This document shows positions 730-59,917 of a stretch of 64,000 bases of DNA, in pieces. The notes beneath the pieces were generated by a model, which worked only from the letters and a program-made list of their open reading frames with translations, made no database searches and was not told the origin of the DNA. The stretch's first letter is position 1. Each line of letters opens with the position of its first letter. The position numbers and the translations under genes are program-made. Source of the DNA: Paraspadella gotoi. Taxonomy: Eukaryota; Animalia; Chaetognatha. The DNA is taken from the NCBI GenBank assembly GCA_051294375.1, contig CM119271.1, positions 2,849,611 through 2,913,610 of the forward strand, read 5' to 3'.

Positions 730-1569
730 CTGTAAGATTTTCAAAATTTGCGCCGGCGTCTTTTAGGGCTTCTTCAAAATTTTTAGAGGAGAATCTTCCA
801 AGAAGTTTAATGATTCCTGTAGCTCCCACTGTAAAGCCAAATGTATTTTAGTTATTACTACTGGCTGAAATAAACAAGCTGAAGAGACAGTGATAATTGT
901 TATTTGTTAGTGACAGAACCGTTCAATATAAGCAGTTCCTGAGCTTCAGATCAGGCTGTAACACCATGTTACAGGCGGGTTAAGCGCCTCGTCCCTCTTA
1001 ACTGCTAGGCGACCACCGGGCTAGAACCACCGGACCTTTGACCTTTGGCTGCTGATGAACGGTTGGTGGATTTTAGTCCACCATAAAGCTATCTTGCTAT
1101 GGTAAGTTATGCTATTGGTAAGTTAAGGCCTTCATTCTTCTTCATTTGCCTCGGCGTGAGTATAAGAACCAGGAGTAATGGAATTAAACCCTAATGAAAT
1201 TTTGTGAAATTCCTCCTCTTAACTTAAATAGCAAGTGATCAAATAACAATCTATCAAATTCCTTACCATTAGTTGCTGCCGCTGCTGCCCCGGTACTCGC
1301 GGCGACGATTTCCATGATGACTCCAACCGGAAACAGAGGTGTGAACAAGAACGCTGCCCCGATGATGGCGGTGGTAGAAGCAATAAGACCAACGGAACTT
1401 CCAACAATATTAGTAATATTCACATTTTTCTTATGCTTCTGCAAATTGTCCACTTGAACTTCGAAAGCCGTTTTTATCTTTCTCACAGCCTCCATTTTCC
1501 AATTGGAAGCTTCTTTATTCAGTTCCGTGGTAATCGATACCAATTCTTGGATTTTTTTAAGTTGAAGAG
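730..1569 (-). CDS. Apolipoprotein L-like exons (1569-1267 and 828-730); later exons not identified
   Basis: Spliced translation ..VDNLQKHKKNVNITNIVGSSVGLIASTTAIIGAAFLFTPLFPVGVIMEIVAASTGAAAAATN/VGATGIIKLLGRFSSKNFEEALKD.. matches the ApoL pattern (L.K.H.....NVVGSSVG....I.G....P); GT-AG junctions, all phase 1. Confidence 0.75.
880..1085 (-). mobile_element. Solo LTR, family A (tRNA-head/twister TRIM), partly deleted, in the ApoL intron
   Basis: Reverse-complement copy of LTR 38701-38931; termini TATGG..TCTTCA; 4-bp TSD AAGC (876-879 / 1086-1089). Confidence 0.9.
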
Positions 1570-21454: not shown

Positions 21455-23662
21455 CGTGAAGATCGAAAATGGGCGGCCGACTTCACAGATCTCTGGTGAA
21501 AACGTTCAAAATTAAACGTATCATCCTCCTTCACATATCTTTCCAAAAAAATGTAAATTCGATTGATCATTTACGATTTCTTATTTGTACTCGAATGAAT
21601 TCCGCCTCACGAATTTCGCCACTCTCTCATCCGAAAATATCTTTCTCGCATTCAAAATGCAAATTCTATTTTCATTTTTAATTTCAAATGTTCATATATG
21701 TAAATTCGTCATACTCCCCTACATAAAAAAACAAAACAAAACAAAACAAAAATCTTAATTTTAATGTTTTTCATTCCCAATACGTCCGCCGCGATCCAGG
21801 CGACGATCCCAATACTATATAAATTAAATAATAATAATATCGACAAAAAGAAAAATAATAAAGAAATGAATTGGAAAAAACCTGAAATATTTTTGTTAAC
21901 AAAATTCCACTAATCTTTTATTTTCCTTATCATGAATTACATATCACAACGTTCGTCCTCGTGAGATCAACAAAGGATCAAACTTTAGTCTTCTTGCTTT
22001 AGGGTTATTTTAAGTATGTTTTAACTGATTTGTAGGCAAAGAATAACATTATTTGCGATAATATTTTTAGCAGGATTTGTCAAAAAAATTTTGACCTGTG
22101 CCAAAAAGTTTTTTTTTAAATGACTGCAATTCATATGTATTGCAGGACTACCCAAGGCCCACCTATTACTAAAATTTAAAACCATAATTTTCACAAATAA
22201 GGAAGTTAAGCATCATTGAAAAAATAACCCATCAAAAATATCAGCACTGATAAATATGGCAAAAATGTTTTCAATAGTAACAACATTTTTACAAAAGTTT
22301 ACAAACCCTCTTGAGTACAAGTTAGCAAAATTTTAAAATATATCAGAGCTATGCTAGTTTTTAAAATTTTTTTTACCCAATTTTAGTGGTTTAGGATTAT
22401 TTATTTGAAAAATTGCTTCAATGGGCAATTGCCAGACATCCGGACAACTTCCTATAAATTCCTCAAGCCATTTATCCTATAAATGGAAAAGTTATTCCAT
22501 GTACAGACTTACGACATTCTAGGTTTCCGGTACTGTAACAAACTGTTTAGAAACAATTTTTCTACTTCGTTTTTCGTTTGACTTACATAAGGATTAAGCG
22601 ACACGAGATTTACACTTTATAATTTTATCCTCAATTTCCCCCCGATTGGTTGTCGTGCCGTTTCTTGATTGGTCGAATTACCGTTCGTCTCCTAAATTGA
22701 ATAACAGAAAATTAAACAAGTTCTTCAAGATTTTGGCCGCACTGAACCTAATGCTGCTAACTCGTATCTCCGTCATTTTTCATCCGCTTTTTTTCCGATT
22801 TTTTCTTTTGATCCTTTGTGGCTTTATTTTCCCAACGCGCCCCATTTAATTATGAATTCAGAATTATTTTTTTTTCTGAAATAAAAGAAACAATTTGACA
22901 GTTAAGACGATAAAAAGATAAAACGATAAAACAATAAAAGAAACAATTTGACATTCAAACGATAAATGAGCATTGAGCAAGACTAATTCCACTAATAGCA
23001 CTAAAAATAAAAAGATAATCTTATAAAATTCAACAATTAAGGATCAATCGCGGATACTGCAAATTGGAAAATTATTAAGTATGCCGATGAAAATCACGAG
23101 TAAATATTATCATTATGGTTCCTAACATTTACACTAGGTCATTGCCTTTTTTTTAAAGTCTGCAAACTGCAAATTGGAAAAGTATTAAGTATACCAATAA
23201 AAATCACGAATCACGAATTCAGAATTAAGTAATTTTTTTTTCAGGTTAGAATAATATTTTTAGATTTAAAAATTAAGTCAGAGATTTTGGTTCATTATGA
23301 AATTGGTACAACCAATATAAAAAGTATCCATTCATTTAATAAATAAGCTATCTTGCCCCTCACTTGACTATGGACAGGCTTTGGTGATTTAAGGCCTCCA
23401 TCACTCTCACAAGATAATGACATAGCAGATCCATGTGATTATAGATTATGGTTAAGGTGATTAGGTTTTACGGTTAGAGTTAAAAATAATATTTAGCGAT
23501 TTAGGTTAAATATTAAGTTAAAATTAAATTAAAGAAACTGAAACGGGGCGCTATTGAGAAAGAAAGCCTATTTTTATTTTTTAAATAAAAAAAAACTGGT
23601 AAACAAAAGGAGAGACCATCGCGCCACGCCCACTTCCGTTTTGACTTACCTCTTCCTAAACG

Positions 23663-25309: not shown

Positions 25310-28300
25310 AAAAGAAAAACGGAATTCTTTCCAATTATATCTCAGATATAAATTTGGGATTTTGTATTGAAAAAAAAAGCGCGGAATAAATGGCGATAAT
25401 AAAAGTTTTGAGAAGGAAAAAAATAATCAGAATTTTTCAAAAAACGAACGATCGTACAGAGTGAGAGAGACAGAAAGACAGAAGAGAGAAAGAGAGAAGA
25501 AAGAGAGACAGAAGAGAAAAGAGAGAACAAAGAGACAGAAAGAAAGAGAAAGCTGGAAGCCAGCTGAACAGTCACTGCAGAACCTGAACTCGTTTTTTAA
25601 GGGTTCAGAAAAAGCCAGCAACTGACAAATATAAGAAAAAAAATCTATATATAATTTAAAGAAATAAAAGAAAGGCAAAAATATGTTACAATTGTTTACA
25701 ATTGGAAATTTTTCCAATTTTTTCCAATCGCAGCTTGTAAAAGATTTATTTATATTTGTATTAAATTAAGATATAGCTTCTCATTAAAAAAATCCTTTGA
25801 GTTCCCATTTTTATTAAAATTTAAAACAAATTTTTTGAATTCATCTTCAATATTATATACTGCAATATGTAAATTAGATTAAAGCATTTCTATATACTAA
25901 TTTGGATATTAAGGAGTACTTTAATCTCATTTGCATATTGCAGTAAATCATAATGAAGTGGAAATTCAAACAAAAAAATACTTAAATCCAAAGTAATATG
26001 AAAATATCACAGCTATTTCAAGATGAAAAGCCATATCTAATTTTTAACTTACTATGATCGCACACTTTTTTTAAAACTTTATCATAATTCATAATAATTT
26101 TTATTTAAAAAAAACGGTAAGTCACAGCCAAACCTATAAAAGCGTAGTAGTTTTTATATATGAAAACAGCGTGACGGACGACGACGACGACGACGACGAC
26201 GTCACAAAGAAGCAACCCTAAAACATTATAGAGCCTGACCCGGCTTCGCCGGTCAAGGCTCGATAAAAACGTACACGTTTCGACTAAAAAAAAAAAAAAT
26301 TCGTTGTTTACAAACGAAACAAACTTTTTTCTTGTGTCAAATACTAACATGATTTTTTTTTTTTTTTTTTTTTTTTGCAAATTCTTTCGTTTTTCTCTTC
26401 TTTCGTCTCTTCTCTTCTCTCTTCTTCTCTTCTCTTCTGTCCTCTTTCTTTTCTTTACTTTTCTTTTCTTTTTTTCTGCATCTTCTCTCCTCTCTCTCTC
26501 CCCCCCCCTCAAAAGATTCCTCTCCGATAAAACCTTCGCCGGTCGCGACGAATCCGACTCCACCTTCAGGCGCTACCTCAACCCGTCCCTCAGCGGCGTC
26601 GCCAATCAGTCCATCTCCGCCGCCTGGAGGGATCTCCACAAGTTCGTCACTTCGACCCTCTCGTCGATGGGCTTCGGCCGATCGCGCATGGAGGCCGCGG
26701 TGCTGAGCGAGGCCGACGCCCTCGTCGACGCGGTGCTGGGGCGTCGAGGAAAGCCGTTCGCTCCGGACGGGCTGCTGCGGGTCGCCGTGTCGAACGTGAT
26801 CACCAACGTGGTGTTCGGAGAGCGGGCGGAGATCGGGGGGCCGTCCAGGCTGCACGACTCTTTGAAGGTGTTGAGGATCGTGGGGAATGAATATGTAAAT
26901 TAATAAATAAACAAAATTAAGTTAAAAAGTATGTTAAAAAATTAATAGAAAAATAAATAAAAAATTAATGACAAATAGATAAATAAAACGTATAAAAATG
27001 TCGAAAAAATGCCTTGTGATTGGAATAAAGAGAAACAAATAAATACATAAAAAAACGTACACTATTTAAAACATTTTTAATTATTTTGTTCGTCATCTCA
27101 TTAGATTGAATTTATTAATTGATTTATTACTTTCTTAATTCATCAAAACCAAACTTTAAAAGACGATCGCCAACGGTTTCCTCTACCTCATCACCCATCC
27201 TCTCTACGCCTTCTTCCCCTCCGTGGCCAAACTCATCCAGACGAGCCGCTTCAACGACATCGTCGACTCTTACGAGTTCGTCTGCGGATTCATCCAGGAT
27301 TCCTTGAAGCGGCACGAGGCTACGGTTTGGATTGGAGGGGGCTGATCGGAGTGGTAGTGATGGAGATGGAGATGATCAACTGTCTCTTCAACACCCCAAT
27401 AATCTCCACAGGTCGACCCCGAAGATCCCCGCGATTTCCTCGACGCTATCGTCCTCGAGCGACGAGCGAATCCGGGAGCCGAGCATCTTTCCGACGACAA
27501 TCTCCATCACACGGTCGGTCGCGTGGAAAACGATGCCGCGAGCAATTCACCGTTCGTTGCACACAAGGTCCCGAACTTCGGATCGGGCTGTAGTCCGTCA
27601 CTGCAGGAGAGTTAGACGCCCCGTCCCGCTTTCTTGTGAGAATGAGCAGGGCGCGAATCCGGTTCCTTTGGGTCGGGGAGTAGCTCGTGCTACCTCCGGC
27701 GCCATAGGTGCTGCTGATTCTCGGACAAGTAACGGGGTATGAAATATTACCGATAAACATCTGTACATCCTTTTTTTTTTTTTCCTTTTTTCTTTTTTTC
27801 CTTCCTCTCGCCAATACCCATCAATATATCAAAGCTCCGACTGACCACACTCCGACTGACCACACTCTTTCCACTCCAGGTGTTCGATCTCTTCCTCGGC
27901 GGCACCGACACGACCACTCACGTCCTCGACTGGATCATCGCCTGGTTCGTCAAGTTTCCCGAGATCAGGCGCCGACTTCTCGATGAGGTCCATCAGGCGT
28001 TCGGTCAGGACGGGGCGCCCGTTTTGTCCGCTTTAAGGTGGATCGAGTCCTTTGAATATTTTTTTAAATTTTTAAATACGAAATAATTTTTATCGTTTTA
28101 TTCTTAGCTTACTATACTATACTATAGTTTAATTTTAAAATATTTAGATTTTTAAAATTATATACGAGACTGTGAGAGAGTCTTGATAGAAAGCTTGCAG
28201 GGACCTGCTATGTCATTATCTTGTAAGAGTGATGGAGGCCTTAAACCACCAAAGCCTGTCCAAAGTCAGGGGCAAGATAACTTATTTATTAAATGAATGG

Positions 28301-29819
28301 GTAATTTTTATATTGGTTGTACCAATTTCCTTTCCATAGTTATATATTATTTTTTAAAAAATAATTTATAAATTTTTAAAAATTATTATTATAAAAGTAT
28401 TAATTTTGTATTAATATGAATAAAATATTTTATTATAATTTTTTATATTGTGATTAAATTTTGTTGAATGAAAGCCGAAACTTGTCTGATCAATAAAAAT
28501 AAAATCGTTGATGTATCAAGACTTTGTCTTTAATTTCAAATTTTTTATATTAAACTAAAATTAATTAATAATCTAGCCTAATGTGTTTTATGATCCTTCC
28601 CTCATTTCCAGCTCCATGCATTACTTCCAAGCCTTCGTGGACGAAGTGTTGCGACGATCCTCGGTGGCCGACTTCGCCGCGCCCCACACTGCCGTCAAAG
28701 AAGGCGCCACCTTCGATGGATACGAAATCCCGAGAGGAACGCAGATCATGGTGAATCTTTAGTGCAGGGCGATTTTGGATCATAATAGGTCAAGTCAAGT
28801 CAAACCAGTCAAAATCAGTTGAGATTCTTCAAGTAATGTATGTTATACATAAATTGTACGTATATGACAGTTTAAACTTAATAAGATAATTATACTGAAC
28901 TACTATGGCAACGGAGGGACATGTGTGATGCTTAAAGAGTGAGGCATCGCCCGACAGATGGAACTCAGGGTTTTGGATCTGCAGTGACCACCCCATGTCA
29001 CTGGCGTGTTTATGCCGACACCATCACACTCTAACCAGCGTGACCGTGAGAGGATTGAACCCGGAACTCACGGTTGGTGAACGAGTAATTAGCTGTCCAA
29101 GCAAATGGTACGAACTGAGTTTTACCAAGCTATACGGGAGGCGAATTTAGGATTCGCCACCCTACCTTATTTGCAATTATAACCCACTCCTTATCGCTTA
29201 ACTTACGGAATACAATGACCTAAAAGTTTCGACGATTTTAACATGAAAAGGGTGACAAAGTTTTTACATTTGTTCAGCTTAACACCTCTTCTTTTCCAAA
29301 GTCTGTGTCTGTTTTTTCTAGCTTATCTAATAAGTTATTAGCATTTTATTCGATTTTTTTTTACTTTTTTTTCAATTAAAATTAATATGATATCAAAAAT
29401 TATATTTTGAAATTTTTTTTTTTTTTCGCAATATGAAATTTTTGTTCAACATTGAAAAAAAAAGGTGGATCTCTTTGTTGTACCATTTCCGTCCCCCATT
29501 CCCTATCGAGGTCAACATCTACGCGTGCCATCACGACCCGACCGTGTGGGACGACCCCAAAGACTTCCGCCCCGAGCGTTTCCTCGACGCCGAGGGCCGC
29601 TACGTCAAAAGCGACGAGCTGCTGTCCTTCGGCTTCGGGACGCGGCGCTGCATCGGCGAGAAGCTGGCGCGGCTGGAGATCTTCGTCTTCGTCGTGCGGC
29701 TGCTGCAGCGGGTGGAGTTCCGGCTGGCCGAGGGTTCCGAAATGCCGGCCATGGAAGGCAGGAAGCCGTTCTTGAGGGCGCCGGAGAATTACGAGGTCGT
29801 GGCGACGGCGTTGGGGTGA
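23663..29819 (+). CDS. Cytochrome P450, clan 2-like; exons 23663-23925, 26516-26867, 27163-27324, 27412-27513, 27880-28037, 28612-28750, 29511-29819
   Basis: N-terminal TM anchor plus PSGP, PRDFLD, I-helix DLFLGGTDTT, EVLR (ExxR), PERF, heme motif FGFGTRRCIG; all junctions GT-AG and in phase. Confidence 0.93.
24070..24330 (+). repeat. 19-bp minisatellite (TGATGCGATGATA...)n; inverted relative at ~14800-14930
   Basis: Tandem units visible; shared flank cgtaaataaaa..aaacaaatgcgtgtat. Confidence 0.75.
27522..27759 (-). mobile_element. Solo LTR-like element, family D (divergent relative of family A), in CYP intron 4; boundaries approximate
   Basis: Colinear motifs shared with family A: tggcgccggagg, acccaaagg, ggattcgcgccc, gggacggggcg..taac, tacagcc.gatccgaag.tc.gg, gaacggt; no TSD found. 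Confidence 0.75.
28904..29161 (-). mobile_element. Solo LTR, family B (tRNA-head/twister), in CYP intron 6
   Basis: 4-bp TSD CTAC (28900-28903 / 29162-29165); 5' hairpin ggcgaa..ttcgcc; B box GGTTCAATCC at 29061-29052; twister-like core. Confidence 0.85.
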
Positions 29820-29935
29820 CGGAAGAGGTGGAGGTGGGTTGGAGGTGGAAATGGGGAAATGAGAACTTCGTTACGTGATTTGTATTAATTAATTAATTAA
29901 TTATAATTCTGTTGCTCTAAATGTCTGTAATTGTA

Positions 29936-30186
29936 TGTAGTCGGGCATTTCATAAGTTCACCCCGCAAGCATGACCTGGCGACTCATTGACTCATGACCA
30001 CTAGGTCCCGGGTTCAATCCCAACCAGGGAGCAACACTGCGGGAAGCGTCTGGACAGCCGTAAACCGCCTTAGGGACCTGGAAAACCCTCAAGCCTGGTT
30101 CCAAGCTCAGGACCCGATCCATGGCTGCTGAGGGGGCATAGAAGTTACGAATAGTCATCTTCATCCCACTTAACGCCTTATCCACA
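29936..30186 (+). mobile_element. LTR, family C, just downstream of the CYP stop codon
   Basis: TGTAG..CCACA termini; B box GGTTCAATCC at 30011-30020; twister-like core at 30040-30116; no matching TSD. Confidence 0.8.
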
Positions 30187-31009: not shown

Positions 31010-32382
31010 GATAACTACCGGGAACTCTCTGTTCATTAATTTAAATATTTCTTTAACAAACAAACAAACTAATGTAAGCTCGTGACGAAATAAAAAACGA
31101 GGGTTTTACAATTGGCTTAACAAGAAAAAGTCTTCCGCTCTCCCTTGCGGTTGAAATCGTAATATGAAGATAGAAGACGGTTTGAAAAGGATTCATTTTT
31201 TTGCAAAAATTAGTTGGTGTAAGATTTCTTTTTCTTACACACAATCGGAAAGATAGCTTATTTATTAAATGAATGGAAAATTTTTATATTGGTTGTAGCA
31301 ATTTCATAAAATTCAGCTCCTTGTATTTTGATGCTGGGCGTAGAACAATATAGTATTCCCCGATCTAATACTTAAGGGAGTGGTCTTTTCATACAATTGA
31401 AACATTCTTTGAAATATTTTCCACTTCATTGATAGGTACTGTGGGAGTGAATAAAAGAGACTGTGAGAGAGTCTTGATTGAAAGCTTGCAGGGACCTGCT
31501 ATGTCATTATTTTTTAAGAGTGATGGAGGCCTTAAACCACCAAAGCCTGTCCAGCCTGTAAGCCTGTAAGCTTAAAGCCTGTCCAAAGTCAGGGGCAATA
31601 TTGCTGATTCATTAAATGAATGGATAATGATTGGATAATTTTTATATTGGTTGTACCAATTACACAAACATGTCCGGGCGTACATCCGGTTACATGAGAT
31701 TTCACCCGGTTACATTCGGGTACATTTCATTTGAACCATATTACATCCGGTTTGGTGACAACAACAACGACAACAACAACAACCTTAACGACTCTTAAAC
31801 TTACCTAAATCGTGACCTACGACTTAAGGTCAAATAGTTAATTGACCACTAGATTCGTTTCGACTCTTATTGTTATTTTTACTATTGTCTTTTCTCTTTT
31901 TGTTATTGTCGTTTTTCTCTCTGAAAATGATTTTGATCATTACATGTTGTAAATAAATTCGTGAAACGTCTTCTTATTTTCTTCTTTAAATTTCTATCAA
32001 GTTATTTACCAAACCGGTTACATTCATTTACATTTGGTAATATCCAGTTTCATCCCGTAGTTCGCCGGTGCAACGAGGTCGAGTCGCTCTCGCGGTTTTC
32101 AGAGCTGCTCGTTAACGACCGAGAGAGTCGGCCGAGTCGCGGCCGGCATTACACCAACTCCCACGAAACCCGCTATCGTATATATTTTGTCATAAATAGA
32201 CATATATGAGGCCTAACTAGTTGAATATTAGTGTTTTCTGTCAGTTATTTATAAAACTGTCATTTATGTATCTGATAAAAAAACAAATTGTCTCTACTGT
32301 TTTGGATCGGTGCCCATCCAACCTTTCCTCATCAGTTCCTTCTCCCCCTCCTAGTGATTTTTATTGCTGATGGATGCAATAA

Positions 32383-35921: not shown

Positions 35922-38732
35922 GAAATAGAAAAAAGAATAATAACATTCATCTCTGTCGGTCGTTAATTTTTTGTATCAATGTCTATTTAAAAAAAATAAA
36001 AAAATAAATAAAAGAATAGAACAATTAATTCTATCACTCGCAAAGTATTAAATATCGAAATTTTTTCATGAAAAAAAAAATATTTTTTTTAATATCCAAC
36101 TTTAATAAAACTTCACAGACTTTGGTTACTTAGGCGTCTAAGTTTTTTGGACGCTCGTTTAAAACTTTCGCCTCGTTCGCTATGTTATATTAAAAAAACA
36201 AACTATTTTCTCCGATGTAAAAAAAAAAATCATCTGAAAATATTCAAACAAAAGACGCGTAAACTTTAACATCGATGTCGCCATCTTTCGTCAGATGTCG
36301 TCGTTTTCGCCTTCTCGTTCAAAAAAAAATATATAATCCGCTTCGTTATCTCTCAAAATCGAATTTTCGCGTCACCGGCGTCACTCCCGTCGACCGCGTC
36401 ACCGGCGTCACTCCCATCGCCCGCGTCACCGTCACCCGCGAAATGGACGGTGACGTCAGCGACGTTCGTCACTCGCGTCGACTTTGAGTCGCTCGATTTC
36501 ATCGAGAATCGATTCGTCATCAAGATCGAATTAAAAAAAAAAAAAACCTCTTTTTATATCGGACTCGACTGTATTTCACGCTACATTGTACGTATAATGT
36601 ATAATTGTATATAGTATATACTATATACGTTTTCGGAGCATCAAGAGTGTATTATGTTTACAAGAAATTGGTATATTTATCTAACCAAGACAGGTAAAAA
36701 AACTCGTTCTTCGTTTTCGCCTATTCCCTTTTTTTTTCTTCATTTCTAGTATTTTTGGCTCGTGTATCTTTTTTTTTCGAGTTTCATTATTACTTTTTTT
36801 TCTTTTTTTTTTCTCTCTAATTTATATTTTTAAATTTATTTCAGTCGCGTCTCTGTTTTTTGTTGTTTTTTTTTTTCTTTTTTTTGTTTGTTTGTTTTTT
36901 GTTGTTTTTTTTTTGTTCAAATCGTTAGTCTTTTACGTTTTACGATTCAATATTTTCATTTGTCACTTTTCTTAAACCTCGAATAATCGGGTTTTTTTTT
37001 GTTTTTTTTTGGTCGAAGTTGTGACTGCTAATGTTGTTGTTTTTGTTTTTTGTAATCGTTAGTTTTATTGTTTTTGTTTCTCTCCACTAATCTTCTCTTC
37101 CGTTTCCCCTTGTTGTTCTTGTTTTTGTTTTGAGCCAACGTCTTAACATCTTAACCCCTTTTGGCCCCTGACCTCTCTTTCCGTTGTTGAGCTCGTGGTT
37201 TTGACCTTTCTCTCTTTTTTGAAAGCGAAGGAAACAAAAAGGAATAACCATGACTTTTGGTGACGGAAAAAAAAAAATTGTTAATTTGAAAATAATCTAG
37301 TTAATCGTTTCGCGCATTTAATCAATTAGGGTTTTAACCAGTTTGGCATCCGAATCTTTTAATCAACAGAATGAAAAAAAAACCTTTGGGTCAAAAATCG
37401 AGGTCGAAAAATATCGGATATCTGTTTTAATGTTTAAATTATTTCAATCACTGTAATTTAAAAAGAACAAAGCATAAGCACCGGACCACGAAATAACGCT
37501 TAAACAAAAGTTTTCACATTGAATCTATTGACAACGAAAAAGTATAATAAGAAAAGCTTGACTAACAACATTTACATGCGAGTTCATCCGAAGCAGTTTT
37601 AATTTGACTTAATTTTCTTTTAATTCATTGTTTTTTCTTCTATTTATTGTACCCTAACACGATTTGTGCCTCGTTTATAATTTTCGACGTCTGCTTTTTG
37701 GCCCGACAAAGAACGATTAAGAATTTGGAATTCGTTGCTCGGTTTAATTATCAACAAACAATTCGGCGAAAGGGAAAAAAAAGATCCGTTGTTTGTTTAC
37801 GCGAAAACGAAATAAGAAATTAACTTTTTTTTAATTTCGTCGATTAAAAAAATTATAAGAATTAATTTTTAGTGTGATTATAAACAAGGACGTTCGGGGG
37901 TCCTCGAGTCAACTCGCCATTTCCTTCCTACTTGAAACATCGAATTTTAAAAATAAAAGACTAATTTAATATCGGTTTATTTAACTTCTTCCAAGAAACT
38001 GGGCCCATATATTTTTTTCCGCCAGTAGTTTCGTTCGGGGCCGTGTCGAACGCCATTAAACCGATTACGCATGCCAACATTTTCTCGACTTTGCTTAAGG
38101 TCCGGGATCACTCAATTCAAATTATAATTAAACGAAAACCGAGCTCGGATTTCGAAAGGAGAGCTCCTGACGATTCCGAAAATGTATTCACTTTACTATT
38201 TTTTCAAAGGCTTCATCGTTTTTTCGATTTTTTTTATACTATATAAAATAAAAGAAACCTATTTGAAGAGTTGCAGACCAAACGGTAAGGCGGTTTCTCA
38301 TGAAATATGGCATGAATTACCTTTAGGTCACGAACTCTAATTCTATGAAAAGATACTTTCAAAATTTGCCTTCCTTCATATAAAATTGATTATTTTAATC
38401 AATTTTTGGATAGTTCCTTGATATCTTTGAAACAAAAACATTTTTTCAAAAACGCGCTCATAGAATCTCCCCCACCTTTCTTTTTTTGCCCAAGATATTT
38501 TTTTCTTCAAGAAAGTCAACGGTTTGAGCTGCAACTCTTTGTTTTTAACTTCACTTCGTCAAGAAAGTTAAATTCTGTACTCATTAAACTCATTAAACAT
38601 TTACATAAAGTATAAAGTCAAATTGAAATAAATTTGATAATTTTTTTCACTCATAAAACTCATAAAAGTATAAAAACCCGTCTGGAAATGTGTAGAGTAG
38701 TATGGTGGACTAAATCCACCAACCGTTCATCA

Positions 38733-38804
38733 GCGGCCATTGGTGCCGGAGGCAAGTCATTCGCCTCCCAACCCAAAGGTCCGGGGTTCTAGCCCGGTGG
38801 TCGT
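38733..38804 (+). promoter_or_regulatory. tRNA(Gly)-derived Pol III internal promoter in the LTR (second copy ~39145-39216)
   Basis: A-box-like TGGTGCCGGAGG at 38741-38752; CTCCCAA anticodon-like loop; B-box-like GGTTCTAGCCC at 38785-38795; acceptor-like stem gcggcca/tggtcgt. Confidence 0.75.
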
Positions 38805-38807
38805 CTG

Positions 38808-38880
38808 GCAGTTAAGGGGACGGGGCGCTTAACCCGCCTGTAACATGGTGTTACAGCCTGATCCGAAGCTCAGGGACTGC
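38808..38880 (+). ncRNA. Predicted twister ribozyme, type-P5 permutation (second copy 39220-39293)
   Basis: P5 gcagtt/gactgc; P2' GGG + GA + CGG; palindromic P1 GGCGCT; UAA; P2 CCC; GC; P3 ctgtaaca/tgttacag; P4 cctga/tcagg with loop UCCGAAGC. Confidence 0.8.
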
Positions 38881-39705
38881 TATATTGAACGGTTCTGTCA
38901 TTAACACTTATCAATAATTACTGTCTCTTCATTGGTGAGCCCGACTTCCGAACACAACAGCAACAACAACTTTCAGGCGACATGCCTCAACCTGGCGATG
39001 CACTTTCCGCCCACAACACATCAGGCGACATGCCTCAACTTGGTGACGAACTTTCCACCAACAACAATTCACTGAAGAGACGCAACAGACTTCTCCTACG
39101 GGAGGGGGATGTATGGTGGACTAAAATCCACCAACCGTTCATCAGCGGCCATTGGTGCCGGAGGCAAGTCATTCGCCTCCCAACCCAAAGGTCCGGGGTT
39201 CTAGCCCGGTGGTCGTCTGGCAGTTAAGAGGGACGGGGCGCTTAACCCGCCTGTAACATGGTGTTACAGCCTGATCCGAAGCTCAGGGACTGCTTATATT
39301 GAACGGTTCTGTCATTAACACTTATCAATAATTACTGTCTCTTCAGTAGTTTATTTTAGACTTATTAGTGAACAACTCCAAGTATGTACTTGTAGCAAAA
39401 GAAGAATTAAATATAAGAAGTAGAAATTGAGCTTACTGTAAAGAATCAGTTTTAAGTTAAAAATTTAGTTGTAGAAATTTAGCTTACATATAAAAAATTA
39501 TTTTTCTCTTGAAAATCTAGTTTTACCGAAGAAAAAATTTGTTTAAATTTTTATAAACATTTTATGTAGATTTTTTAAAAAATTTTCGATTATTTTTCAA
39601 TAGAAATCCTCTTACAAGATATGAGAAAATGATTAAGATACAGTAAATTAAGATTTCTACAATTTTAGGTTGAGTGATCCCTGGCCTTAAGAAGGTATTT
39701 ATATA

Positions 39706-39959
39706 TGTAGTCGGGCATTGCATAAGTTCACCCCGCTTATAAGCATGACAACTTCAGTCGTGACCCGGTAGCTCATTTAGTAAAACCATCAACTCTTGAC
39801 CACTAGGTACCGATTCAATCCCAGCTTGCAGGAACCTGTTTCCAAGCCCGAACCCGTTCCTTGGCTGCTTGAGAGGTTAAAGACGTTGCGGATAGCGCTC
39901 TTCAGCCCACTTATCCTTGGTCGGACCGAATGCCTTTCAAGTCAAACCCACTTATCCAC
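39706..39959 (+). mobile_element. Degenerate LTR, family C
   Basis: tgtagtcgggcattgcataagttcacccc start; tRNA-like ggtagctcatttagtaaaac and gattcaatccc; twister core partly deleted. Confidence 0.7.
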
Positions 39960-40166
39960 GGATATCTTTCATATTGCGATCAAAATTTGTTTCATTTTCG
40001 ATGGCCGAAGGACCCGAGTTATCAACTGAATCAGTCAATAAATCAATCATTGGGTCATCGTCTCGCCACCAACATTTCCATTCCTCGTCGTCTTTGTTCT
40101 CACGGACAAACCTCACCTTTCCCACTTTTTTTCTCAATCCGATTTCCCGACGGCGATTCCAAGGTC

Positions 40167-40429: not shown

Positions 40430-40588
40430 TACCTACCCTGCGGGAAGAGTGAGGACGGCCGTAAGCCGCCTTGGGGGCGTGGCAAACCCTCAAGCCTGGT
40501 TCCAAGCCAGGAACCGTTCCATGTCTGCTACAGGGGGTTATAGAAGTTACGGATAGTCATCTTCAGCCCACTTAGCGCCTTATCCACA
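40430..40588 (+). mobile_element. 3' part of a family C LTR with a well-preserved twister-like core (40440-40517)
   Basis: Homologous to 30035-30186; ends cttatccaca. Confidence 0.8.
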
Positions 40589-41034: not shown

Positions 41035-42032
41035 AGAAAATTGATTGTCTTTCGGAGGCGACGCGCGGGATTTTCCGATCAGTCTGGAAATTCTCGGAAA
41101 AGAAAGAAAAAAATCGATTTGTCAAATCGGAGGGGAAAAAAATGGATTTCTCGGATCTAAAAGTTTTTTTCGGCCAACTTGTTCGATAGTTAGATGGAAA
41201 GTAACTAAAAATATAAAGTACGGAGGCACATTTTGAACTGATCTTTTTCCAAGAATCGATGGGGGGTGGGGAAAGTAAGAAGCCACGCGAGAAAGCTTTA
41301 AGGTCATCTTTTCACAGTTTTTCCTTCCCCTTCGATGCTCTTTAGTTTTTTTGGCTTCTTCATTGGAACTTTTTTCCCCCCCCAAGGACCCCCCAAACTT
41401 TTTTTCCTTCCCCTCCTTTCCTCTGCGCGTCTTCCTGTTACTTGTTTCCCTTCCCCTCCCTTCCCCTTCCTTTCCTCCTCTCCCCCACCTCTTCCCCTCC
41501 TCCCTTACATCCCCCTGCCCTCCCTTTCTCTTCCTTCTCTTCTTGTTTCGACAAGTCCAGTCTCAGCTGCGATTTCGTTTCCCTTTAATATCTCGCGGAG
41601 GAGAAAAGACCCGGGAAGACTTCCTTCGATCAAGAAGATGGGGGTCGTGGGAAGGAGTAGATCGAAAAGACGGATGAAAAATGAAAACCATATGTCCATC
41701 TGGATTTTATGTATATTCTTATTTTAATTTTTACGTATATATGTGTAATTTTTTCGTCCGAATAAATACATGTTTCCATCCTCCTATAACTGACCAAAAA
41801 CAGAAAGCTTGTTTAATGTTTTGATGTACCGAGTATATCTGATGAAGTTTAAACAATACAAGATACAGCGCGGCCCGTCACAAAAGTTTCGTTATAAACA
41901 CAACTACAAGTCTAATCAACCTACACATGTTATTATCTTATCTATCTATCTTATCTTATCTATCTATCTTTCTATCTATCTATCTTAACTTATCTATTGA
42001 CTGGAAAATGTTAAATTCGACTAAGTTTTGTA

Positions 42033-42194
42033 TGGGGTTAGCGCGAACGCAGACCCCACTATCACAAATTATGCTCCCGAGTTTCCCACATTCGGGGAAA
42101 TCGCAAGGGTCAGCCCAACCGAAGTGCAATGGAAGGGCCTCGCCCTGGGGGAACCTCCTTGCTGATCAAGGTATCCCCTGAGCCAGGTAAGTAT
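42033..42194 (-). ncRNA. RNU1: U1 spliceosomal snRNA
   Basis: Starts ATACTTACCTGG; stem-loop I GATCAGCAAG; U1A loop ATTGCAC; Sm site AATTTGTG; terminal stem GGGGTCTGCG-TTCG-CGCTAACCCC; ~162 nt. Confidence 0.95.
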
Positions 42195-44135
42195 GCTTCT
42201 ACCTGCAAAATTTTCGACCTTTAATCCAAGCCTGGACTTAAGACAATAATTTTTTTATTTGAAGAGGATAAGGCTAGAATTAATATTAGTTTTCTATTTC
42301 ACACCTTTTTTGGCGCAAAATAGTATAAAATTTGGTTTGATTAAATATGCACTGCTATAATTTAAAATTTACCTTAGATCTATCATTTTACGAAAGTTTG
42401 TATTCAGATTGTAGCTGCATTAAAGCTAATATTTATATGCTCTTAGTTATTATGCAAATAAACCATAGTAACGAGGTTTGTGAAGGAAACAAAAGATTAC
42501 TTTACGCTTCCAATTATAACTTTTTTTATGAAACTATAGACAAAGGTCGACAAACAATTGTTATGATTCGTGACACAATGTTTATTAGTATATATATATA
42601 TTTATATATATAAATAGATTAATAATATTGAATAAAATGTATAGTATATCTATAAATATAATCTCACTAGATTAAGCTTGGAGAAATTACTTGTACATGT
42701 GTCAGTTGCCACTTATCCCAGGGAATGAATTCGCAAAAAGCATTTCTTGTTTACATATCTCATTATTTCCAAGAAACCTTTTTCACTCGGGCTGATATTG
42801 GTGGATGAATGGTTTTTATGTGAGTATATTATCATAGTATATTATTTTGGTTGTACCAATTCCATACATTTATGTTGCTATGAGACGTAAGCTTCTTTCT
42901 GAAGCCGTTAAACTATAATACAGAACAGTTGAAGAAAGAAGGGAAATAAAGTAAATACTTTCGTTTTAAATTGGAATTTTCGTCGTTAATTGGTCGATTT
43001 AAATTAATTTTGCCCCTGATTGGTAAATTACATACATCTAAATTTCCTTCTATACAAGTTTTATAAAAATCATTGTGTTGAGTCTCTCTTTTCGTTGATT
43101 TAAGGAAAAACGACAGTTTTTAATGACAATAAACAAAGATTTATTATATTTAATAAATCGTTGTTTATTGCCATTAAAAACTGTCGTTTTTCTTTATGAA
43201 ATTGGTACAACCAATATAAAAATTATTCATTCATTTAATAAATAAGCTATCTTGCCCCTGACTTTGGACAATAATATAATTAGTTACTTTTATCTTTAAT
43301 CTCATTTGCATATTTCAGTACACTCATTCAAACTTTTCGAAAAAATATTAATCAATTGATCAAACTTTCAAATACATTTTCTAGTAGAACTTAATATACA
43401 AAAACTATTTAATTTGATTAAAATAGTATTAGCGTGTATTCAATTTACTTTTTATGATATTGCTTCTACTAAATATTTTTTCATATGAAACCGATATCGC
43501 GTCCGGCAGTAGAAGAATAAGGTATATAAACAAAAAGAGAACTTCTTCGAAAACGTAGCGTAGTAACTTATAAACGTAGCATAGCTTCCAGTGGTTCAGA
43601 TGTAGCATGTGACTTTGTGACGTAGCGTTGATTCACTAATTAAATGTAGCGTAATATTTATTTATTTTAACTTTTTTATTCGCAATGAATATATCTTTTT
43701 TGGTGAAGAATATAGAACCATAGCGCCCAACGAAGTGAAAAACGAAACGTCCCGAATGAATATTTCGCGCTCTCTCTCTCTCTCTTTCCTCTCTCGCTCT
43801 CTTTCTTTTTCTTTTGCAATATTTTCTCACTCTCTCCCTCTGCCTGACTCTCTCTCTGTCTCATTTTTCCCCTCTATTTCCAGCACTAACTCAATTTCTG
43901 AGTCAAAAAAAAAAAACGTAAAAAAAACAAAATCATTAAAATCATTCGCAACGAAAACAAAACAGCAACAATAAAAACAACAACAACAACAACAACTCCT
44001 CGTGGCCTTCGGTTTTTTGTTTTCGATTTTTTTCCGGAAAGAAAAAAATATATATAATCGCGTGTTTTTCCGAAGAGGAAAGAGGAAGCGCTTATATACT
44101 ATATGCCTCGATGGGAAGGAAAACCGTCATTGAGC

Positions 44136-45266: not shown

Positions 45267-46736
45267 TTTTTGTTTGTTTTTTTTTTCCTTTTTCTTATTT
45301 CTTCTTTTTCCCCTTTCCTCCTTCATCTTGTTTTTTTTCCTCATTTTCATTTTCCTTTTGTTTTTGTCCATTTTACTTTTTTTTTTTTTTTTTTCGGGTT
45401 TTGACTTCAAAACAGAAATCGACTTTTTTTTTCTCTTTCAGTTTTTTTTTATCCTTATTTTTCTTCCTTTTATCTTTCCTTTTATCTCATTCCTCTTTTC
45501 TCATTCTTGTCTTCTTCCTCGTTTTATAATCATATTTTTTTACCTTTTTTTACCTTCCTCAATCATTTTTTTAAATTTTCTATTCTTCGGATCTAATTTA
45601 AGCAAATTCCTTTCATTTATTCCCTTCAACAAAAATTCCTGTTTTTTCCCGCCGATTTTTCTTTCTTTTATTTTATTAGCGTCAGATTAAAAATGTTTTA
45701 TACATTTGAAACAGTTTTTACAAATATTTAATACCACGTAATTGATGAAGAATCCAGGCGCTATGTCAGTTAATGTATAAACTTTAATATGATTGAAACC
45801 TTGCAAAAAAAAAAGTTTCAGATCCTGCGATGTTATTATCTCGTAAAAGGGATAAATACCATAAACCACCAAAGCCTATCCAAAGTCAGCCGCAAGATAG
45901 CTTCTTTATTGAAGAATGGATAATTGCACATTTATTGTATCAATTTCATCTACGTCAACTACTTCAATCAGCGTCAATATTAGTCTCTACGCCAAAGGCC
46001 AGTCCGTGGCGTGAGGGATTAATTCCGTCTCTCCCAACGGCGACCCGAAAATCCCCTACGTCAGACTTTTTGACATTGCAAACTCCCGACTTCCGACGAC
46101 CAACTGAAGGTTGCAACGGTTGATGTATTCAGTTCCATTTGTATTCTCGATTTGACAAATGGCATAAGCAAGGCCCAATGAAACACTGATAATTAATTTT
46201 TTTTATCATCGCAGCTTATTCCAAACATCAGTACTTCGTTGTTTGAGCATCAACAGAATCTGCAATATAGTTATGCAATACTAACAACATTTTAGCAGCA
46301 ACTGCACCCATTCGCTAAAGGAGATACCATTCATTGGCATTGGCCATTTATTGGCCATTCATTGGCCATTCATTGGCTTCAATCCCGCAGACATTATAAC
46401 TAAAAATCCATCATTCCAGTTTCAAAATGGTCATTTTGAAACGGCAAATGTATCATCGTCGGCCATTGAAAATCCCATCTCCTTTCATTGACTCCCGTTG
46501 CCTCGCATCAGCCTGTTGCATCTCACATGGACCCGCGGCGCAAATAACCGTCCATTGCCTCTCGCCGCCCGAAGCGAAATACGACGGAGGAGACAATAGA
46601 ATGGGAAAAAAAAGAATGAAAAAAAAAAAGAAAAAGGAAAAATGATAAAACTAAGAATCAACGCGTCGGTCTTTTTTAATCTTTCGTCTTTTTTTTCTCT
46701 CTTTAGTATTTTCTAAAATTTTGTATTGTTCCAATC

Positions 46737-54775: not shown

Positions 54776-55717
54776 AATCTCTTCTTATGCTTAATTGGCG
54801 TTTGGCTTTTAATATCCTAGTGACGTCGGGACACAAAGTCCGCGCTTTGACGTAATTAATTCCATTACAAGAGATTTAGTGGATAAGAGAGCTCTTCTGT
54901 TCTCTCTCTCTCATCTCTCTCTCTCTCTCTCTTTCTCTCTCTTCTCTCTCGTCTCTCTCTCTCTCTCTCTCTCTTCTCTTCTCTCCTGTCGTCCCTCTCT
55001 GTCTCCCTCTCTGTCCCCTTCTCTTTCAGGATCCTGTCCTGAATCGAGAATCGAGAATGAGGTATCGATTTAACTTCTCATTTGAATTTCGCTTCTTCGA
55101 GCTAATATCGTTCAAAAATAAACTACTCTCGAAATAAACCGGATTTTATATAAAAAAAAAATTGCGTCGCCTTCGTTTTATATTTTATATTTTATATTAT
55201 TTTAAACGAGTAGTTCTTGTCGAGAAGAAAAATCGAAAATACTGTTTTAAAGTTTTAAAGTTTTAAACTTTTTTCCCCCACAAACAAAATCAAAATCAAA
55301 GTTTACTTCAACTATTTATTTTTTTCGCAAAATCTCTGACAGCCTCGCGTAAACATTTCTTAAAGTTCGTTCGTTTTCCGAACGAAACTTCGAATGTTTT
55401 AAATAGAAAAAACTAATTTAAAATATTTTTGACGATGATTTCCACGTTTCCATTCGTCCACTCGCAACTCGTTAATTTTCCGCTCTATTGGCGTGAGAGG
55501 GAGTGAGTGGAAAAAAATCCTTGCATTAGTATTTGTATTTGGATCATACGGCGGGTCCGAAGACCATGGGTCGCATTAGTTACAAACATTCCAAACACAA
55601 ATATATTAATCAAATCGATTACAATAAAATCATCAATAGTTTTGTTCGAATAAGAGCTAAACGAAAAACATCGTCAATGGGTCATGGATTGTTCTTTTGG
55701 TTTTCCCTTCATCTCAG

Positions 55718-56228
55718 GACAACTCGAGAATTTCGCCACCTACTACCGCCACCAATCGAGCCTTTGAGGGAACGGAAGACAAAAGACAAACGCTAACGGA
55801 CGGTAAGTCTTGGGAATGAAATTACTCCGATTGTATCTATAAACTTTTCCTTTTAATTATTTTTAAATGGGGGAAAACAATGTTAGGTAATTCTGCAAGA
55901 TTTCGATCCTAAGCAGGACTTTCGAGTCGCCACATTTATATCGAATTTAATATTAAACTATACGCTAAATCATTCTTAGGAAGCATGGCAGCCGCTCAGG
56001 GTTTTCGCGACGATGACGCCGACGACGACGACATCGACGACGACCTCGAATCAGCGCTTCACTCGCCGCCACCAGGGGTAAGTCTCAGCGTTTTATCATA
56101 TTTAGTATGTTTATCATTAATATCATAATGTTGACTAAACTTAGGGACGCAACAAAGGGCGGACGCGGCGTGGCGGGGTCAGCGCCGAATGCTACACTGA
56201 AGACGACGCGACGTCGTTTGTCAAAAAG
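55718..56228 (+). CDS. PRKAR1: cAMP-dependent protein kinase type I regulatory subunit, linker/inhibitor exons (55718-55802, 55980-56077, 56145-56228); partial gene
   Basis: Spliced peptide DNSRISPPTT..DGSMAAAQGFRDDDADDDDIDDDLESALHSPPPGGRNKGRTRRGGVSAECYTEDDATSFVKK matches the RI motif [21 protein letters not shown]; all donors GTAAGT. Confidence 0.85.
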
Positions 56229-56264
56229 GTAAGTTGAAAGTCAAACTCATTTTTTTTAGAAAGA

Positions 56265-56348
<84 letters not shown>

Positions 56349-57824
56349 ATCACGAGAAAAAAAAAATAACCCTTTCCAATACCGAATTATACATATGCTA
56401 CAGTAGGAATTAAAACATAATTTCACAATGATACCTCTTATTTGCTTCCCTCTCTCCATAGAGCAATTGCCCAATCTGACGCAATTAATAGACCAGGTCT
56501 CCGACCTATAGCTGTAAAAATGATTGTAAAAATGACGTGGGGCGTTTGTCGGTTAATCGGAGGTCATTCGTCAAGAATTTGGTCGTTTGTCGGTCATTTG
56601 TCACTAATTCGTCGTTCATCAATGGTTCGGTTATCATTCTTCGGTCATTTGTCAGTCATTCAACAAGAATTCAGTCATAATTTTTCGATACAATTTGTCT
56701 GAATTTTGTTCGTAATTCATCGGCCGGTTTGATATCACCACGGTGATCATCATTGTGTTCGTAACCGTGATTGTCTGGTTCGCGCCTTATTCAAATGGTC
56801 AATAGACAAGTTGCAAACTATTTTTTCTTTGTTAAGTTCACTTCTCAGTCTTTCTGTATTGTTTTTTTNNNNNNNNNNNNNNNNNNNNNNNNNTTGTGCG
56901 ACTTACCCGCGGTTCTTACCTCTCCTCTCTTTCTCTATCTCTTTCTCCTTGTTTCTCCGTTTCTCTCTCTGTTTCTCTCGCTCTCTCTCTGCTTTCCAGA
57001 AATCAAATAATTGAAGGTCAGCAAGGATGCACAAACGGTCCAGTTGTCAAATATATTAACCTTGATGTTGTTGTTGTTGTTAATGTTGTTGTCCTTTCTG
57101 ATTCCGCTTAGGCTTTTTTTGGTCATGTTGGTGGTTTTCTCAAATAATCGATGTTCTACTAAATTCTAAATGGCAAAAAGAAAAATTACTCATGAAATTT
57201 TTCAACTCGCATCCTCGACGGAAAATAATTTTTTATGTGGGCGATTTTTAATTGATACTGATAAAAAGGTAGCGCTCATCAGTGGAGAATTAACCCACAA
57301 AAAAAAGGTGGACAAAATTGAGACAGAGTAAACGTATAGCTAGGGGAGAGCAAAATGTAAAAGTGAATAATTTTTGTGGACGAATTCTGAACCTCGAGAT
57401 CCTGCGGGGAAGAGGACGAGGAAAGGGGAGGACGACGATGCCTTCGGTGAAACCCCTCCTCCTCCTCCTCCAAAATCATGATGTACTCCAAGAGCTAAAA
57501 ATAATTTATCCAGTCATTCACCAATCTTACATGAATTTGAAATAGGAAGAAGTAGAAAAAATGTTTCAGAACAAAAACAGCATAGAAATTAATCACCATT
57601 CACCACGTATATGTGTCTTTTAAAATAACTTGCACAGTTAATATGAATCTAAGAAATAAATCAATTATTATTTTTCCTTTAAATGATTTTCAATCATTAA
57701 ACCTTGTAAATACGTAGCATAAAATTTGTAATAAGTATTTTATTACATCTTACTATGAAATTAGAACTTGTAATATGTAACTTTCTAATATTTTGTCGGA
57801 TATTCAAACCTAAAATTTTTGCCC

Positions 57825-59372: not shown

Positions 59373-59882
59373 GACAACTCGAGAATTTCGCCACCTACTA
59401 CCGCCACCAATCGAGCCTTTGAGGGAACGGAAGACAAAAGACAAACGCTAACGGACGGTAAGTCTTGGGAATGAAATTACTCCGATTGTATCTATAAACT
59501 TTTCCTTTTAATTATTTACAAATGGGGAAAAAAATGTTAGGTAATTCTGCAAGATTTCGATCCTAAGCAGGACTTTCGAGTCGCCACATTTATATCGAAT
59601 TTAATATTAAACTATACGCTAAATCATTCTTAGGAAGCATGGCAGCCGCTCAGGGTTTTCGCGACGATGACGCCGACGACGACGACATCGACGACGACCT
59701 CGAATCAGCGCTTCACTCGCCGCCACCAGGGGTAAGTCTCAGCGTTTTATCATATTTAGTATGTTTATCATTAATATCATAATGTTGACTAAACTTAGGG
59801 ACGCAACAAAGGGCGGACGCGGCGTGGCGGGGTCAGCGCCGAATGCTACACTGAAGACGACGCGACGTCGTTTGTCAAAAAG
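59373..59882 (+). CDS. PRKAR1: Duplicate of the PKA RI exons (59373-59457, 59634-59731, 59799-59882); cAMP-binding exons not seen in this window
   Basis: Exon sequences and splice sites identical to 55718-56228. Confidence 0.8.
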
Positions 59883-59917
59883 GTAAGTTGAAAGTCAAAC
59901 TCATTTTTTTTAGAAAG

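Follow-up and report, generated by a model that had tools for sequence, protein, structure and literature searches.

A high-copy, non-coding TRIM at positions 38701-39345 of the window (the whole 64,000-nucleotide stretch of Paraspadella gotoi DNA that was analysed) carries in each of its LTRs a tRNA-like head followed by a twister motif. We consider it fairly probable that the element acts as an LTR retrozyme in an animal: its two folds would pair with each other as a dimer with swapped strands, and a predicted double cut would yield a 413-nt unit for circularisation. The anatomy of the element, the abundance of its copies and the conservation of its structure are established, and a retrozyme-like cycle would be the most likely mechanism of its propagation.

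The element lies on the forward strand and, at 645 bp, falls below 1 kb. Its 5' LTR (38701..38931, 231 bp, TA..CA ends) and 3' LTR (39112..39345, 234 bp), both delimited by LTR alignment and contig ends, are 98.7% identical, with three single-base indels and zero substitutions between them, and the flank letters give the TSD GTAG on both sides (38697..38700 and 39346..39349). The 180-bp interior between the LTRs is non-coding and contains a PBS of tRNA-Trp type (38933..38945), which matches the tRNA-Trp 3' end printed in Fig. S2 of Kojima (2024) at 12 of 13 bases, two 48-bp tandem hairpin-forming repeats (38973..39068) that are 83% alike, and a PPT (39100..39109) followed by TG and the 3' LTR. 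A first-pass annotation of this DNA had described a complete TRIM with near-identical LTRs, a GTAG TSD, a tRNA-Trp-like PBS, a PPT and a non-coding interior, and all of these were borne out. The boundaries are right, since a solo LTR has matching TA..CA ends and a TSD of its own and contig ends pile up at 39112 and 39345. The same type of PBS is used by Gypsy-32_NVi and Helenus-2_SyJa. A Pfam scan of the two frames spanning the element gave zero matches, and the search for an autonomous partner gave 0 RT or integrase matches among 146 frames in the window.

The TRIM is a high-copy element with hundreds of junctions in one DNA run: 19,738 contigs of run X1 align at the locus, of which 167 stop at the 5' boundary of the element (another 43 do so one base away) and 92 at its 3' boundary, with unrelated flanks. 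An apparent "empty-site" joint from 38688 to 39345 was not accepted as proof of polymorphism, since the flanking DNA is repetitive too. Element copies were drawn from the window and from contig tables, and five repeat families in the window (F1-F5) carry the twister motif. Family F1 includes a solo LTR (880..1085, reverse strand; TA..CA ends, 4-bp TSD GCTT) with an internal deletion in its tRNA head and a twister decayed at the 3-bp pseudoknot, whilst F2 is represented by a diverged LTR-like copy (27522..27757, reverse strand), multicopy and with sharp ends, in which the tRNA head and twister are homologous. An intact twister variant is found in the F3 copy at 28160..28336 (forward); further F3 copies lie near 12961-13260 and 23296-23435 (both reverse) and 31367-31677 and 45696-45959 (both forward), no tRNA head was seen in the F3 copies, and 5' truncation is frequent among them. 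Family F4 has a twister at 40433..40523 and further copies at about 29936-30186, at 13759-13898 (TG..CA ends, TSD AAAG) and at about 39706-39975 (with tRNA boxes), all on the forward strand. The solo-LTR-like copy of F5 (28904..29161, reverse) has GTAG on both sides, tRNA boxes, and a twister with a 4-bp P2 and an 8-nt palindrome, and a second, partial copy lies near 15061-15245 (forward).

The intact F3 copy sits in sense orientation within an intron of a P450 gene. A protein search with one query from the window had fish CYP2U1 (47%) as its sole match, and in run X9 the P450 gene shows a single spliced joint of GT..AG type. Run X9 also includes element contigs, many with genomic flanks, and these contigs reveal neither start, strand, level nor circularity; the smaller share of CpG-decay variants in this run was set aside, as it may only reflect lower depth.

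The tRNA-like head of the 5' LTR (38733..38804) is 72 nt long, is closed by a 7-bp acceptor-like stem, has a fold z of -2.5 and recurs identically in the 3' LTR (39145..39216). Its A box (38741-38752) and B box (38786-38795) differ from the consensus sequences by one mismatch each; they are 45 nt apart, and GGTTC is present. The F2 A box is nearly identical to that of F1. The head is likely to be a Pol III promoter, the case for a tRNA-derived promoter consisting of the box motifs, their spacing and the stems; neither ARAGORN nor Rfam called a tRNA in it. The element lacks an internal run of four T, as do 27% of shuffles, so that this absence is not significant, and in F2 a run of four T is found near the LTR end.

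Behind the head, the twister motif of the 5' LTR (38806..38882) comprises P5, P2' (38816-18), the catalytic G (38819), a pseudoknot strand (38821-23), P2 (38833-35), P3 (38838-56) and P4/L4 (38857-74), with a U^A cleavage site predicted at 38830..38831 by homology to the twister L1 loop. The motif stands at the same place in the 3' LTR (39219..39294), where P2 contains a bulged A39229 and the cut is predicted at 39243/39244; the two cuts would release a 413-nt unit, 38831-39243, with the PBS and PPT inside. The landmarks listed in the first-pass annotation (P2', GA, U^AA, P2, P3, P4/L4 and two pseudoknots) are as it gave them, and the two predicted sites and their 413-nt spacing were confirmed in position. 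Its remark that P2 has only 3 bp holds for the 5' LTR, to which the plain 3-bp P2 is peculiar, but not for the 3' LTR and the solo LTR, in which P2 is 3 bp plus one bulged A. A twister descriptor, written with the site already known, matched only the two LTRs within the window, and gave 0 matches in 150 shuffles of the window and 0 in 20,000 shuffles of an 845-nt region; matches of a relaxed descriptor at 7157, 7649 and 8720 have long linkers and were rejected as chance.

The check with the Rfam twister-P5 model that had been suggested came out against the motif: over the element neither a twister nor a hammerhead was reported even at E<=10, the whole window yielded U1 snRNA only, and the gathering score of RF02684 was not reached by the element, whilst the positive control, L062, scored 41.7 bits. 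The P5 model is built around a long P1 hairpin and lacks P3, which could explain the miss, but a miss it is. A P2 strand of 3 nt and an AC/GU pseudoknot also occur in the control, which Rfam accepts as a P5 twister at gathering level.

Covariation among copies from the window families and contigs supports the fold. The structure was scored on the same related sequences from which it was drawn (8 copies of 4 families), and 90.7% of 214 cells are paired, a value reached by 0 of 500 shuffles, with slid controls at most at 49%. Both sides have changed in 17 of the 28 pairs, with compensation in stems and both pseudoknots; depending on the family, the 3-bp pseudoknot is CCG/CGG, CCA/TGG or TCC/GGA and the 2-bp pseudoknot is GC/GC or AC/GT. 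The F2 copy in the window breaks pairs at 27608 and 27610, but about 99% of the contig depth there keeps the pairing letters. Every intact copy retains the catalytic G, the A-A that follows the cut site, the adenines of L4 and the two pseudoknots, although the stems differ by family. Eleven copies in the 64 kb score above 20 bits in our model, eight of them its training copies.

The motif had first been read as a normal twister of type P5 whose P1 is a hairpin, but this is not what the LTRs contain: the P1 hairpin is absent and a palindrome stands in its place (38824..38829 in the 5' LTR, predicted to pair with 39237-39242), which is only 6 nt long and cannot fold back on itself. By family it reads GGCGCT, GGCGTC, AGGCCT, CGGCCG and TGTCGGCA, with 6 nt throughout except for the 8 nt of F5. 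Full self-complementarity is found in 10 of the 11 copies placed by the descriptor, and decayed copies without the full palindrome retain 4/6 (F4a and F4c) or 0/6 (F3 near 45850). A palindrome in all families has a rough chance of 4e-6, counting F1 and F2 as one lineage and allowing G-U. Its innermost pair, impossible in a hairpin, is C-G in F1/F2 and G-C in F3/F4, and the palindrome duplexes of F1-F4 have energies of -6.3 to -10.7 kcal/mol. The palindrome suggests a strand-swapped double twister with one P1 helix common to both LTR copies; because the two copies would share P1, both cuts would need the full read-through transcript. In the natural transcript the swapped skeleton folds at -207.9 and two monomers at -204.7, a gap of 3 kcal/mol that is within model error. 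The unconstrained read-through fold reaches -219.7, lower than the swapped skeleton by about 12 kcal/mol, these energies containing no pseudoknot term, and uses a competing hairpin that occupies a pseudoknot strand.

There is the possibility that each LTR motif is instead a mini-twister without P1, cutting alone in cis, with the palindrome closing a hairpin of 1-2 bp or helping modestly and the 413-nt unit and circle forming all the same. Two studies give P1 as dispensable in twisters (PMC5408937; PMC11662667), so that monomers may cut, and in F1-F4 a single closing pair with a loop of 4 nt would be sterically feasible. However, one or two outer pairs would suffice for such a hairpin, and full self-complementarity has been kept in all five families (about 4e-6); the sense-oriented F3 copy in the P450 intron would also be weakly easier to tolerate if monomers were slow. 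We thus regard cutting by single motifs as unlikely.

With the strand-swapped double twister, the cycle would begin with a Pol III start near 38733, the first run of four T lying in the host flank at 39354. Once the second LTR has been transcribed, the palindrome at 38824-29 would, as its conservation suggests, pair with 39237-42, giving the two motifs a common P1 of 6 bp. An ordinary type-P1 twister, with the whole element body as its P5 loop, would then arise from the first motif's 3' half together with the second motif's 5' half, and the leftover halves of both motifs would form a second twister. The predicted cuts at 38830/31 and 39243/44 would free a unit with a 5'-OH and a 2',3'-cyclic phosphate and without a terminal repeat, which, as in retrozymes, a host RtcB-type ligase could close into a circle. 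The circle should not recut, because its single motif would have no partner; its junction sequence is the LTR sequence and is indistinguishable from it in contigs. Primed by tRNA-Trp, a Gypsy-type RT acting in trans could copy round the circle and so restore two LTRs, and integrase would insert the DNA with a 4-bp TSD. We would give even chances to the stronger proposal that the double twister is obligate, the RNA cutting itself only after a full unit has been transcribed, and that it is driving the radiation, in an animal, of LTR retrozymes that are transcribed by Pol III and rely on circles; this radiation would comprise at least five families within the 64 kb and have a hammerhead counterpart in wasp Helenus. 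If the dimer is obligate, solo LTRs in host transcripts would stay uncut, as would the finished circle.

A cycle without a circle, in which only the 3' site is cut efficiently and a linear RNA (38733-39243) with a terminal repeat of ~98 nt is copied by strand-transfer RT, appears rather less probable still than cutting by single motifs. The lack of an internal run of four T would let the 3' cut define the transcript end, and the equality of the two motifs is forced by LTR copying and hence is no proof that both cut; however, a cut at the 5' site seems no less likely, because the inner ribozyme, which serves this site, is a canonical type-P1 twister whose P5 pairs one LTR with the other even when the fold is left unconstrained, and plant LTR retrozymes do make circles (PMC4918200). 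It is very improbable that the motif is a relic without activity or with a structural role only, such as packaging or dimerisation, in a normal Helenus-type TRIM. The absent Rfam match, the competing hairpin that dominates the predicted fold and the short P2 speak for such a relic; against it, all intact copies, across families with different stems, retain the catalytic G, the two A that follow the cut, the L4 adenines and the two pseudoknots, and L062 shares the 3-nt P2 strand and the AC/GU pseudoknot.

Relatives were also sought elsewhere. A pattern scan of viral contigs gave 0; 6 metagenome-contig matches were rejected as GC-rich bacterial-type DNA, by inspection without repeats or twister stems, and 2 matches in prokaryote genomes were rejected as having neither palindrome nor stems. 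The pattern for canonical P5 twisters gave 55 loci, none convincing, with Rfam run on 24 of the 55, and a twister family search, used as a control, gave hits in 2 of 150 genomes.

If the double-twister cycle is correct, LTR retrozymes would occur in animals as well as in plants and would use twisters as well as hammerheads, genomic twisters would have a second biological role, and the dimer switch that puts a palindrome in place of a stem would have arisen in a second ribozyme class. Such twisters may be widely undercounted, as the Rfam scan missed the copies in 64 kb, and the hammerhead counterpart in wasp Helenus would suggest that one ribozyme can take the place of another behind the tRNA head. 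Engineered cassettes for circular-RNA expression likewise combine a Pol III head with paired twisters, and the element would be a natural version gated by unit length.

The closest known element is Helenus (TRIMp3). Helenus is tRNA-derived and Ajax 5S-derived (Kojima 2024, PMC10886601), labels which the first-pass annotation had swapped. Like the element, Helenus TRIMs are non-coding, shorter than 1 kb and presumed to depend on a Gypsy partner, with a tRNA-like LTR sequence, a PBS, a PPT and, in animals, a 4-bp TSD (PMC10886601); Pol III transcription is unproven there too. In most Helenus LTRs examined the tRNA lies towards the 3' end and a T-run comes after it, whereas the head of the element lies early in the LTR. 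The tRNA box is also early in Helenus-2_SyJa and Helenus-2_SyUm from Synergus wasps, which share the tRNA-Trp PBS, and just after this box their consensus LTRs have, by eye, the core of a type III hammerhead, an unannotated candidate. Two wasp Helenus LTRs have TA..CA ends as well. No ribozyme is described by Kojima (2024, PMC10886601), where "twister" occurs 0 times and "hammerhead" only in a reference title; among the matches listed for twister-loop motifs in the supplement none is in a twister context, though wrapped lines can hide matches. The layout of tRNA head, ribozyme and LTR is less unusual than the first-pass annotation had supposed, being shared by wasp Helenus with its by-eye hammerhead; literature searches yielded neither a twister LTR element nor a natural dimeric twister.

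Plant LTR retrozymes (Cervera, Urbina and de la Pena 2016, PMC4918200) have in common with the element a ribozyme in each LTR, a PBS and PPT, a 4-bp TSD and a non-coding interior, and their model runs from unit-length RNA through a circle to a Gypsy RT; double cutting removes the R repeat and so calls for a circular template (PMC4918200). They differ in their type III hammerheads, tRNA-Met PBS, LTRs of 300-400 bp and restriction to plants, and their circles have been shown whereas those of the element are predicted. The metazoan retrozymes described so far are without LTR, PBS and PPT (PMC7229834). With known twisters (Rfam RF02684 type P5; Schistosoma Perere-3, Liu 2021, PMC8501958) the motif shares the UAA cut site, the GA, the L4 loop, two pseudoknots and P3/P4/P5, and P3 of F1 opens with CUGUA as in S. 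mansoni twisters. It differs from them in its palindrome, which replaces the P1 hairpin, and in the 3-bp bulged P2 of F1-F4, and the twisters known from retrotransposons belong to non-LTR (RTE) elements, where they stand 5'-terminally in type-P1 layout; one study reports that type-P1 twisters tolerate imperfections in P2 and P1 (PMC11662667), and another speaks of "intermolecular dimer artifacts" in an O. sativa twister crystal (PMC5408937). Hammerheads with palindromic loops act as dimers (PMC6765202; PMC7229834), and the dimeric minimal hammerheads of Penelope-like elements and amphibian repeats, although of another ribozyme class and in non-LTR hosts, likewise have a short palindrome for a stem, with adjacent copies pairing to cleave.

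The element at 38701-39345 is a real and abundant TRIM with these boundaries, as follows from its LTRs, target site duplications (TSDs), priming site and purine tract, a solo LTR and contig ends. Its LTRs (231 and 234 bp) differ only by three single-base indels, GTAG is found at both flanks, and the 180-bp interior starts with a primer binding site (PBS) which matches the tRNA-Trp end in Fig. S2 of Kojima's paper (PMC10886601) at 12 of 13 bases and ends with a 10-nt purine tract plus TG, thus bearing out the anatomy reported in the first-pass annotation. The solo LTR at 880-1085(-) shares the TA..CA ends and is flanked by GCTT as its TSD. In DNA run X1, 19,738 contigs matched the locus, and contig ends with unrelated flanks were found at 39112 (167), 39111 (43 more) and 39345 (92). 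The flanks (38550-38700 and 39346-39500) are also repetitive, with high summed contig depth, and the TRIM therefore sits inside another repeat.

The tRNA-like head at 38733-38804 spans 72 nt, and a 7-bp stem closes it (fold z -2.5). Its A box (38741) and B box (38786) lie 45 nt apart, each with one mismatch to the consensus. The A box is nearly letter-identical in a second repeat family, F2, and one copy of another, F4, has a perfect B box. Neither ARAGORN nor Rfam called the head a tRNA; the tRNA-derived Pol III promoter proposed earlier draws on the boxes, their spacing and the stem, and on its sequence the head is likely a Pol III promoter. No four-T run occurs within the element before the flank, as in 27% of shuffles, and one is present near the end of F2.

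Rfam gave no twister match, neither in the window nor, even at E<=10, over the element, while the positive control, the Rfam type-P5 twister L062, scored 41.7 bits. The motif is missed because the model, as seen from this control, is made for a long P1 hairpin and does not include P3; the P2 strand of L062 is itself 3 nt long, and its pseudoknot is of the AC/GU kind. A descriptor based on the published core, written with the site already known, matched only the two LTRs in the window, with no match in 150 window shuffles or 20,000 local shuffles. The twister landmarks described for each LTR are borne out, and of the type-P5 assignment the core survives, without the P1 hairpin or the Rfam match. 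P2, described as a 3-bp variant, has 3 bp in families F1 (that of the element) to F4, where it also carries a bulge, and 4 bp in F5; type-P1 twisters that have been tested tolerate imperfections in P2 (PMC11662667).

Four further repeat families in the window carry the motif: F2 (27522-27757(-); multicopy, with sharp ends), F3 (five motif-bearing copies), F4 (four related copies, two with the full motif) and F5 (28904-29161(-)). Across eight copies of F1-F4, 90.7% of 214 cells are paired and 17 of 28 pairs have changed on both sides, a level of pairing reached by none of 500 shuffles and by no slid structure (at most 49%), although the structure was drawn from the scored sequences themselves, and these are related to one another. 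The 3-bp pseudoknot is CCG/CGG, CCA/TGG or TCC/GGA and the 2-bp one GC/GC or AC/GT, depending on family; CCG/CGG and GC/GC are the pairings first reported. In the F2 copy of the window, P2 and the 2-bp pseudoknot are disrupted at 27608 and 27610, where about 99% of contig depth has pair-keeping letters. We consider this comparative sequence evidence decisive for the twister reading.

F3, at 12961-13260(-), 28160-28336(+), 31367-31677(+), 23296-23435(-), 43195-43270(-), 45696-45959(+) and 31246-31318(+), carries the palindromic twister as well, but without P3 or a visible tRNA head. Its common 3' end and frequent 5' truncation resemble a non-LTR or Penelope-type element, and the palindromic motif is therefore not confined to TRIMs. 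The F5 copies, at 28904-29161(-) and about 15061-15245(+), combine a canonical P2 of 4 bp with a palindrome of 8 nt, and F5 may connect the 6-nt variant with ordinary twisters. Three twister repeats occupy three introns of a CYP2-like P450 gene (about 26200-29820(+)), F2 and F5 antisense and an intact F3 sense; the intron at 27512-27879 is spliced in run X9. GBP and MARVEL genes are likewise split by introns. Directly downstream of a weak ApoL-like frame (1184-1573(-)) comes the F1 solo LTR; this frame and a guanylate-binding-protein gene (7938-9265(-)) together possibly mark an immune gene neighbourhood. The window also holds a U1 snRNA gene (42032-42194(-); Rfam, 159.8 bits) and a 1.9-kb direct duplication (54976-56868 and 58638-60522; 99% identity). 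By its U1 snRNA and intron-split genes, the window is eukaryotic and likely from an animal.

The pseudoknot strand is separated from the UAA by a segment of exactly 6 nt, or 8 in F5, which is too short for the P1 hairpin first proposed and holds a palindrome instead. Although the descriptors left this segment unconstrained, full self-complementarity is seen in 10 of 11 descriptor-placed copies, with a sequence that differs by family (GGCGCT, GGCGTC, AGGCCT, CGGCCG and TGTCGGCA). Three more decayed copies, read by eye, retain 8/8 (the partial F5 copy), 4/6 (an F4 copy) and 0/6 (F3 near 45850); copies without the palindrome have further breaks in the core. With F1 and F2 taken as one lineage and G-U allowed, the chance is about 4e-6, a rough figure given the common ancestry of the families. 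The innermost pair, which could not form in a hairpin, is C-G in some families and G-C in others. Minimal hammerheads which cleave as dimers carry this signature (PMC6765202; PMC7229834), and by analogy the conserved palindrome is probably of that dimeric kind.

With both LTRs in one transcript, their palindromes would pair into a single 6-bp P1 common to the two motifs. Motif 1 would contribute its 3' half and motif 2 its 5' half to a canonical type-P1 twister, the element body serving as P5 loop, whilst the outer halves would form a second site in a nested arrangement. Constrained folding of the natural transcript gave -207.9 kcal/mol for this swapped skeleton; two monomers, the form in which the motif would act were it instead a self-sufficient mini-twister, came to -204.7. 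The unconstrained fold (-219.7) pairs P5 and P3 across LTRs and includes a competing hairpin on the pseudoknot strand. These values permit the strand-swapped dimer but do not prove it, and cleavage is predicted, with fair probability, to depend on the dimer.

The anatomy, abundance and conservation are established, and the motif is very probably self-cleaving. Pol III read-through would start at about 38733, and dimer formation would be followed by cuts at 38830/31 and 39243/44, releasing a 413-nt unit. This unit would be without the R repeat needed in strand transfer, and on these grounds circular templates have been proposed for plant retrozymes (PMC4918200); in a rival reading, the ribozyme forms the 3' end of a linear template. 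Animal retrozyme RNAs have been circularised in vitro by RtcB (PMC7229834), and the predicted 413-nt circle has a better fold than its shuffles do (z -3.1; 60 of them). A Gypsy partner is suggested by the tRNA-Trp priming and the 4-bp TSDs (PMC10886601), none being found within the window. The whole cycle, from Pol III transcript to circle-based copying, seems somewhat better than an even bet. The motif is very likely twister-derived and under selection. An inactive relic is the weakest rival.

Among TRIMs, Helenus elements are tRNA-derived and Ajax elements 5S-derived (PMC10886601), the reverse of the labels first used. Retrotransposon twisters known from PMC8501958 and PMC7761336 lie at the 5' end of non-LTR elements. 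Among the papers found by full-text search, mostly screened by title or abstract start and with few subscription journals covered, none gives an account of a twister in an LTR element or of a natural dimeric twister. The element differs from a type-P5 twister in P1 and in its Rfam result, and from LTR retrozymes, whose working it is proposed to share, in having no hammerhead. It resembles animal Helenus in TSD, PBS and, as far as motifs go, the tRNA-like head, and shares the tRNA-Trp PBS with Helenus-2_SyJa and -2_SyUm. By eye, the LTRs of these two (PMC10886601 supplement) hold an unannotated type III hammerhead core with mutually complementary loops directly after the tRNA B box, which the text of that paper does not mention. 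Judged from sequence, the TRIM at 38701-39345 is probably a twister-based, likely dimer-gated animal LTR retrozyme.
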